Assembly: GCF_988243305.1 (NCBI RefSeq)
Contig: NZ_OZ547136.1
Direction: 5' to 3' (one strand)
Length of the DNA stretch: 64,000 nucleotides
The notes under the pieces are model-generated. The model was not told the origin of the DNA and did no database searches. It was given only the letters and a program-made list of their open reading frames with translations. This document shows, one piece after another, positions 5,753-6,071 of this stretch; position 1 is the first letter of the stretch; each line of letters opens with the position of its first letter. Both the position numbers and the translations under genes were made by a program.

Positions 5753-6071
5753 TGAGCTTTCATCCTATGAAATTAATTGCTGTTAAAAGCATTGGGTAAA
5801 GAAAATACCCATAGCTCCATACCCGGAGTCAGTTTTTAAAAACTGTTTAAAGAAATGCACAAGTATTGTGATTGATTTTTTAGTTGTTTTTCTTGATGAG
5901 AAGCTGATGCAAAATTCCGTCTTTATAATGAAAATGATGCCAAAGCGAACGACAAGGTTGTAGTTTTCACTACATGTCCATACATAAAATGGGGTAACAT
6001 TCACGCGCCTGGTAGCGTTACCAACGCTACGCTCAAACATAATGATTCTAATAAAACCTCAGGAGACTACT

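Follow-up and report, generated by a model that had tools for sequence, protein, structure and literature searches.

In the annotation of Escherichia coli K-12 MG1655 (NC_000913.3), yejO (b2190) is a pseudogene split into two pieces, one of 67 nt and the other of 2,525 nt. The window, that is, the whole 64,000-nucleotide stretch of DNA analyzed here, carries a full-length copy. This raises the question of where the two states differ, inside the gene or in the short spacer between yejO and narP, and what the difference says about the strain and about YejO itself. The segment concerned comprises the following features:

2983-3056, plus strand: tRNA-Pro gene (proL), the left neighbor of yejO; Rfam tRNA match of 54.9 bits
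3161-5752, minus strand: yejO, an 863-codon open reading frame with one terminal stop, encoding an intact type Va (AIDA-I-like) autotransporter
5686-5689: ATAA, the empty IS5K target site, placed by comparison with the MG1655 flanks
6072-6719, plus strand: narP, encoding a 215-aa nitrate/nitrite response regulator; annotated narP in all matching records

The tRNA gene is likewise annotated tRNA-Pro in all related records. NarP, which begins MPEATPFQ..., combines a receiver domain (PF00072 Response_reg, E = 3.5e-31) with a LuxR/GerE helix-turn-helix (PF00196 GerE, E = 2.6e-24; both Pfam), the architecture of NarL/FixJ-type response regulators, and its gene differs from that of MG1655 at 8 of 648 nt. 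Since the narP ATG lies at 6072 and the yejO start at 5752, the divergent spacer occupies 5753-6071 and measures exactly 319 bp. The open reading frame list and translation thus reproduce both the spacer length and the 863-codon, full-length yejO given in the initial annotation.

In MG1655, the two yejO fragments are separated by IS5K (insH8, b2192), a 1,195-bp element at 2288919-2290113; the first fragment (2290114-2290180) holds the first 67 nt of the gene. The element therefore interrupts yejO after nt 67 from the ATG, at codon 22/23, inside the putative signal-peptide core. Around the insertion, MG1655 has GAATATAA[IS5]ATAACGC, and the uninterrupted site of the window is GAATATAACGC; the 4-bp duplication of IS5K in MG1655 is ATAA, and a single ATAA stands at 5686-5689 of the window. 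That yejO is disrupted by IS5 in K-12, as initially proposed, agrees with the MG1655 annotation and with the literature, in which IS5 makes K-12 yejO a pseudogene. Two recent papers give its position within yejO (PMC11005336, PMC11677980); the second describes it as "inserted inside the gene" and oriented like yejO. The proposed location of that element between yejO and narP is nevertheless wrong, as both the annotation and the alignment place it 67 nt inside yejO. The K-12 element looks intergenic in older gene lists, where the order is yejO, b2191, yi52_8 (IS5), narP (PMC1174868).

In a base-by-base comparison, 319 uninterrupted bp likewise separate the start codons of yejO and narP in MG1655, and the sole difference between the two spacers is at 5799 (A in the window versus C). 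A short spacer devoid of IS elements accordingly does not set this strain apart from K-12, as had been supposed; taken literally, the alignment returned the very result, the same uninterrupted spacer in MG1655, that the initial annotation had named as showing its placement of IS5 to be wrong. The native upstream region that it ascribes to yejO is present here, but equally so in K-12, and the spacer is therefore uninformative on strain. The real difference lies 64-67 bp outside the interval 5753-6071. The spacer is indeed free of IS5 and its terminal repeats, and so is the entire window: a blastn search with IS5K gave zero matches over the 64 kb, and the 16-nt IS5 terminal inverted repeat GGAAGGTGCGAATAAG matched only once across the window, a chance-level match at 15074 that has 3 mismatches. 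Neither IS5 with its terminal repeats nor a duplicated 4-bp target is thus present. What distinguishes K-12 from the window at yejO is IS5K within the putative signal-peptide coding region, not within the spacer. The gist of the earlier reading survives, namely that IS5 disrupts yejO in K-12 but not here, and that the strain is not K-12; the placement of IS5 in the spacer does not.

The frequency of each state was determined among 5,426 complete E. coli genomes. The 200 bp centered on the IS5 site were matched without interruption in 5,015/5,426 (92%), whereas the K-12 yejO::IS5 junction (120-bp query) was found in 356/5,426; the junction-positive genomes among the matches listed (ER1709, gb37, and HB101) are all laboratory strains. 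With the empty site in so many genomes, the window displays the species-typical state, and IS5 is a K-12 peculiarity. In the wild isolate SY033, yejO matches the MG1655 allele, once IS5 is removed, at every nucleotide. By a coverage-based estimate, full-length yejO without the K-12 IS5 occurs in approximately 72% of the genomes. A further fraction of approximately 21% covers less than 80% of the 3.8-kb query, and the low-coverage genomes sampled carry B2-type deletion alleles, in which yejO has two deletions (3191-3819 and 4277-5280). The spacer with its 40-bp flanks is covered in one place in 5,353/5,426 genomes, 4,324 of them at 99% identity or more; K-12 derivatives such as NCM3722 are among the genomes whose spacer is intact, and every full-coverage match listed spans exactly 399 bp in its own record.

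Taken as a whole, the locus is best explained as an ordinary, ancestral, empty-site proL-yejO-narP arrangement in a natural, non-K-12 E. coli, a reading to which we assign a probability of roughly 0.93. Under this ancestral reading, the 319-bp spacer would be a conserved divergent control region shared by nearly all E. coli, K-12 included, and K-12 would differ through a lineage-specific IS5K insertion in the putative signal-peptide coding region of yejO. The contrast between intact yejO and the IS5-bearing K-12 allele is an ordinary, already documented strain polymorphism and nothing novel. The outcome is a corrected detail, in that the K-12 element sits in yejO and not in the yejO-narP spacer, together with the recognition of the window as natural E. 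coli with a common intact yejO. Specialist interest attaches to the purifying selection on an uncharacterized protein, and to an unusually conserved spacer that is consistent with dense narP regulation.

The protein encoded by the intact allele has the domain structure of an autotransporter. Its passenger, of the beta-helix repeat type, matches PF16168 AIDA (E = 1.7e-51) and PF03212 Pertactin (E = 5.3e-45), and its C-terminus matches the translocator beta-barrel PF03797 at residues 602-841 (E = 5.8e-46; all Pfam); the NCBIfam model TIGR01414 is hit at 372 bits against a cut-off of 16. By eye, the N-terminus MHQSGSVSLCRSAISVLVATALYSPIALA resembles a signal peptide, with a charged n-region (R11), a hydrophobic core SAISVLVATALYSPIALA, and A-L-A at 27-29. 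If transcribed, intact YejO could pass through the Sec system and then through its own beta-barrel. YejO shares with AIDA-I/Ag43-type adhesins an AIDA-repeat beta-helical passenger, a pertactin-like domain, and a 12-strand-type barrel, to which the putative signal peptide would be added. However, it scores far under the equivalog cut-offs for Ag43 (133 against 1200), AIDA-I (73 against 1200), and BafA (219 against 700), and therefore belongs to a separate, functionally uncharacterized branch. YejO may act as an adhesin; a literature search returned no functional study or adhesion data for intact YejO. The protein has stayed functionally uncharacterized because the model strain has a broken copy.

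The allele itself is a common one. An identical protein has an NCBI entry under the name "autotransporter YejO [Escherichia coli]" (EFG3071638.1), and 16,859 members make up its cluster at 90% identity. The YejO of strain GMF065 (WP_001578674.1) has 2 residue differences; the locus layout and spacer length are the same, and nothing substantive differs, with 99.6% identity to GMF065 over 3000-6800. Compared with MG1655 YejO after removal of IS5, the window protein has the same length and 97.5% amino acid identity, with 22 differences; the genes differ at 55 nt, with a dS of 0.054 and a dN of 0.012. Among differing pairs of intact yejO alleles, dN/dS ranges from 0.12 to 0.35. Judged by these ratios, intact yejO alleles are under purifying selection. 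Replacements cluster in the passenger, with 20.5 nonsynonymous changes there versus 3 in the linker and barrel, and the substitution pattern looks to be that of a maintained, surface-exposed protein. Given that intact alleles evolve at a dN/dS of about 0.22, yejO is probably functional in nature.

Whether the gene is also expressed is a separate matter. The initial annotation suggested that yejO may be expressible in this strain; with the IS5 block absent, the intact open reading frame and the signature of purifying selection permit expression, and only permit it. A rival view that opposes expressibility alone, and is compatible with the ancestral reading, holds that yejO is intact but cryptic, silent under ordinary conditions owing to a weak promoter or to nucleoid-protein silencing of its AT-rich upstream region, such that the absence of IS5 would not mean expression. 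Several other E. coli autotransporter adhesins stay transcriptionally silent in ordinary conditions. No sites were returned by a standard promoter scan covering 5600-6200, and a relaxed sigma-70 scan of the yejO strand yielded only weak 8-of-12 candidates, so that no good match favors an active promoter and none could be assigned to yejO. The GC content of the approximately 170 bp of spacer adjoining yejO is 34%, a value that may point to H-NS silencing; a literature search returned nothing relevant on H-NS control of yejO. The locus is also often lost or broken: besides IS5 in K-12 and the deletions in B2-type strains, strain CUVM3 has an IS3-family element in yejO at 5645-5649, and yejO has been reported missing from ST131 (PMC5654935). 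The promoter itself has been termed "uncharacterized" (PMC11677980), and K-12 yejO ranks among the least-detected transcripts, in 106/3,376 RNA-seq sets (PMC10392735). The upstream region of that poorly detected gene is near-identical to that of the window (1 SNP); nevertheless, the K-12 figure concerns a fragment downstream of a 1.2-kb IS and is therefore confounded, underestimating promoter activity. Furthermore, the dN/dS of about 0.22 and the conserved start region indicate at least occasional use of the protein. We consider a yejO that is silent under ordinary laboratory conditions about as probable as an expressed one. The AT-rich, yejO-proximal half of the spacer would hold an uncharacterized yejO promoter, probably weak or silenced.

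The other half of the spacer would belong to narP. In K-12, the narP transcript that begins at the distal start has a 5' UTR of 150 nt, RprA base-pairs with the segment from -35 to +4 relative to the narP start codon, and a second control of narP needs leader nt 1-50, these being regulatory regions of RprA and SdsN137 (Brosse et al. 2022; PMC9262595). Transfer of the 150-nt UTR to the window puts the narP start at approximately 5922, so that the narP-proximal half would consist of the narP promoter and a 150-nt leader regulated by sRNAs and Hfq:

5922-6071, plus strand: putative narP 5' leader of 150 nt, with the promoter just upstream; transferred from K-12 (PMC9262595)

Over the narP leader and promoter, the window and MG1655 agree at every position, the lone SNP lying far upstream; since the leader is identical, the controls by RprA, SdsN137, and Hfq should, by analogy with K-12, apply unchanged to this narP. 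Two natural strains have lesions in this region. Strain 2017.17.01CC carries IS1A inside the true spacer at 5910-5917 with an 8-bp duplication, and EC36 has a 218-bp deletion (5729-5946) that takes the yejO start too. Both lesions strike the distal promoter or start of narP, and narP in these strains probably relies on a proximal start. As a separate observation, the divergent strain RMDEC465 has 12 substitutions packed into 23 bp of the narP leader, at 5941-5963 (+20 to +42), the remaining spacer being nearly identical; this cluster could stem from local recombination or mark a short stretch free of constraint.

The yejO-proximal half was examined for elements of its own, and the following candidates were located:

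5793-5811: inverted repeat TGGGTA-N7-TACCCA, from a terminator-like scan
5814-5829: second small inverted repeat, in the yejO-proximal spacer
5830-5845: perfect 16-bp palindrome CAGTTTTTAAAAACTG, a candidate protein-binding site read directly from the sequence

Variation was assessed in an alignment of seven strains, comprising the window, MG1655, GMF065, SY033, CUVM3, a B2-type strain, and RMDEC465. The spacer alignment is gapless, with the same length throughout. In the yejO-proximal spacer, variation is confined to one dinucleotide, 5799-5800 (alignment columns 87-88), which lies in the loop of TGGGTA-N7-TACCCA and is hypervariable, with A/C/G at the first position and A/G/T at the second across the 7 strains. 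The palindrome is kept in 6/7 strains, and the B2-type strain departs from it by a single change. The spacer of RMDEC465 shows 19 differences over its 319 bp, with a cluster at 5941-5963. An Rfam scan of the spacer matched no family, even at E <= 1. Relative to MG1655, the spacer differs at 1/319 positions, as against 7/216 at narP third codon positions and a yejO dS of 0.054 (binomial p = 4e-7). The spacer is thus far more conserved than adjacent synonymous sites, which is consistent with dense regulation, mostly that of narP, and part of this conservation could reflect recombination history and not constraint.

One way to account for the conservation would be an unrecognized regulatory module in the yejO-proximal half, in which the hairpin, the palindrome, and a NarL/NarP-type heptamer couple YejO to the narP promoter, for example, to nitrate or anaerobic signaling. 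Such a module, if real, would explain why conservation of a non-coding segment exceeds that of synonymous sites, and does so even where yejO has decayed, as in B2 strains. The heptamer in question, TACCCAT at 5806, is the single NarL/NarP heptamer match, when approximately 0.3 would be expected by chance (our own estimate), and the scan found no 7-2-7 heptamer pair. As a lone match at chance level it provides no evidence for a NarL/NarP site and was rejected as one, and we consider the coupling module improbable. Still less credible is that the spacer is conserved for encoding a small protein, the product of an 85-codon open reading frame at 5783-6040 on the minus strand, upstream of yejO. This frame is stop-free in 7/7 aligned strains, and a stop-free run of that length is uncommon in shuffled spacers (40/2,000). 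However, almost all of the RMDEC465 substitutions in this frame would change amino acids, the hypervariable site would specify F/C/S/R, no Shine-Dalgarno sequence lies upstream, the frame is antisense to the published narP leader (PMC9262595), and it is annotated in no record examined. With a non-coding substitution pattern and no ribosome-binding site, it was rejected as a gene, and a coding function for the spacer is highly improbable.

The relationship of the strain to K-12 follows from the window at large, which is collinear with MG1655 2283229-2349414 at 95.7-98.7% identity and differs by approximately 2% along all 64 kb. The gene order proL-yejO-narP-ccmH and the 319-bp spacer are the same in both; MG1655 differs in carrying IS5K in yejO, in the 2% nucleotide divergence, and in a 176-bp REP-like insert in the narP-ccmH spacer. 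The claims of a non-K-12 ompC allele and an intact yfaS also hold. OmpC (26477-27604, minus strand) has 375 aa, against 367 aa for the 1,104-nt coding sequence of MG1655, with 14 gap openings in the alignment of the ompC block, and the exact protein is found on 272 public contigs; yfaS (44620-49239, minus strand) is an uninterrupted open reading frame of approximately 1,535 codons, whereas the MG1655 pseudogene stops at codon 1368. Near-identity to MG1655, yejO::IS5K, and the premature yfaS stop, which would mark the K-12 lineage, are all absent, and the non-K-12 assignment is well founded. The notion that IS5K was once present in a K-12-like ancestor and was then precisely excised, for which the single clean ATAA is the sole support, is the least probable of all and is effectively ruled out by the divergence from MG1655 over 64 kb, the 55 nt differences in yejO, the empty site in 92% of genomes species-wide, and the restriction of the IS5 junction to 356/5,426 genomes whose listed examples are laboratory strains.

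As for closer relatives, positions 1-15752 are 100% identical to contig DAODWR010000003.1 of the draft assembly GCA_029483465.1, while the best match of 6000-30000 among the 5,426 complete genomes reaches 98.6% over 24 kb. The 6000-30000 region looks mosaic, and its lineage looks to be represented by draft assemblies only.

Several minor features were also observed beyond the yejO-narP spacer. The convergent narP-ccmH spacer (6720-6753) is 34 bp long and contains a single hairpin (AGCCCGATGG...CCATCGGGC). In MG1655, this spacer is 210 bp long because a REP/BIME-like insert (176 bp, absent from the window) lies between two copies of the same hairpin, and RMDEC465 has IS621 (IS110 family) within it. 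The whole-window Rfam scan returned only tRNA-Pro, MicF (27938-28031), and naRNA4, a REP-derived nucleoid-associated ncRNA located between rcsB and rcsC (31773-31849, minus strand; 64.3 bits). Finally, the eco-mqo gap (19786-19894) holds one unit of approximately 109 bp, of which MG1655 has four tandem copies (2304503-2304955) that are 92.7-93.6% identical to the window copy.
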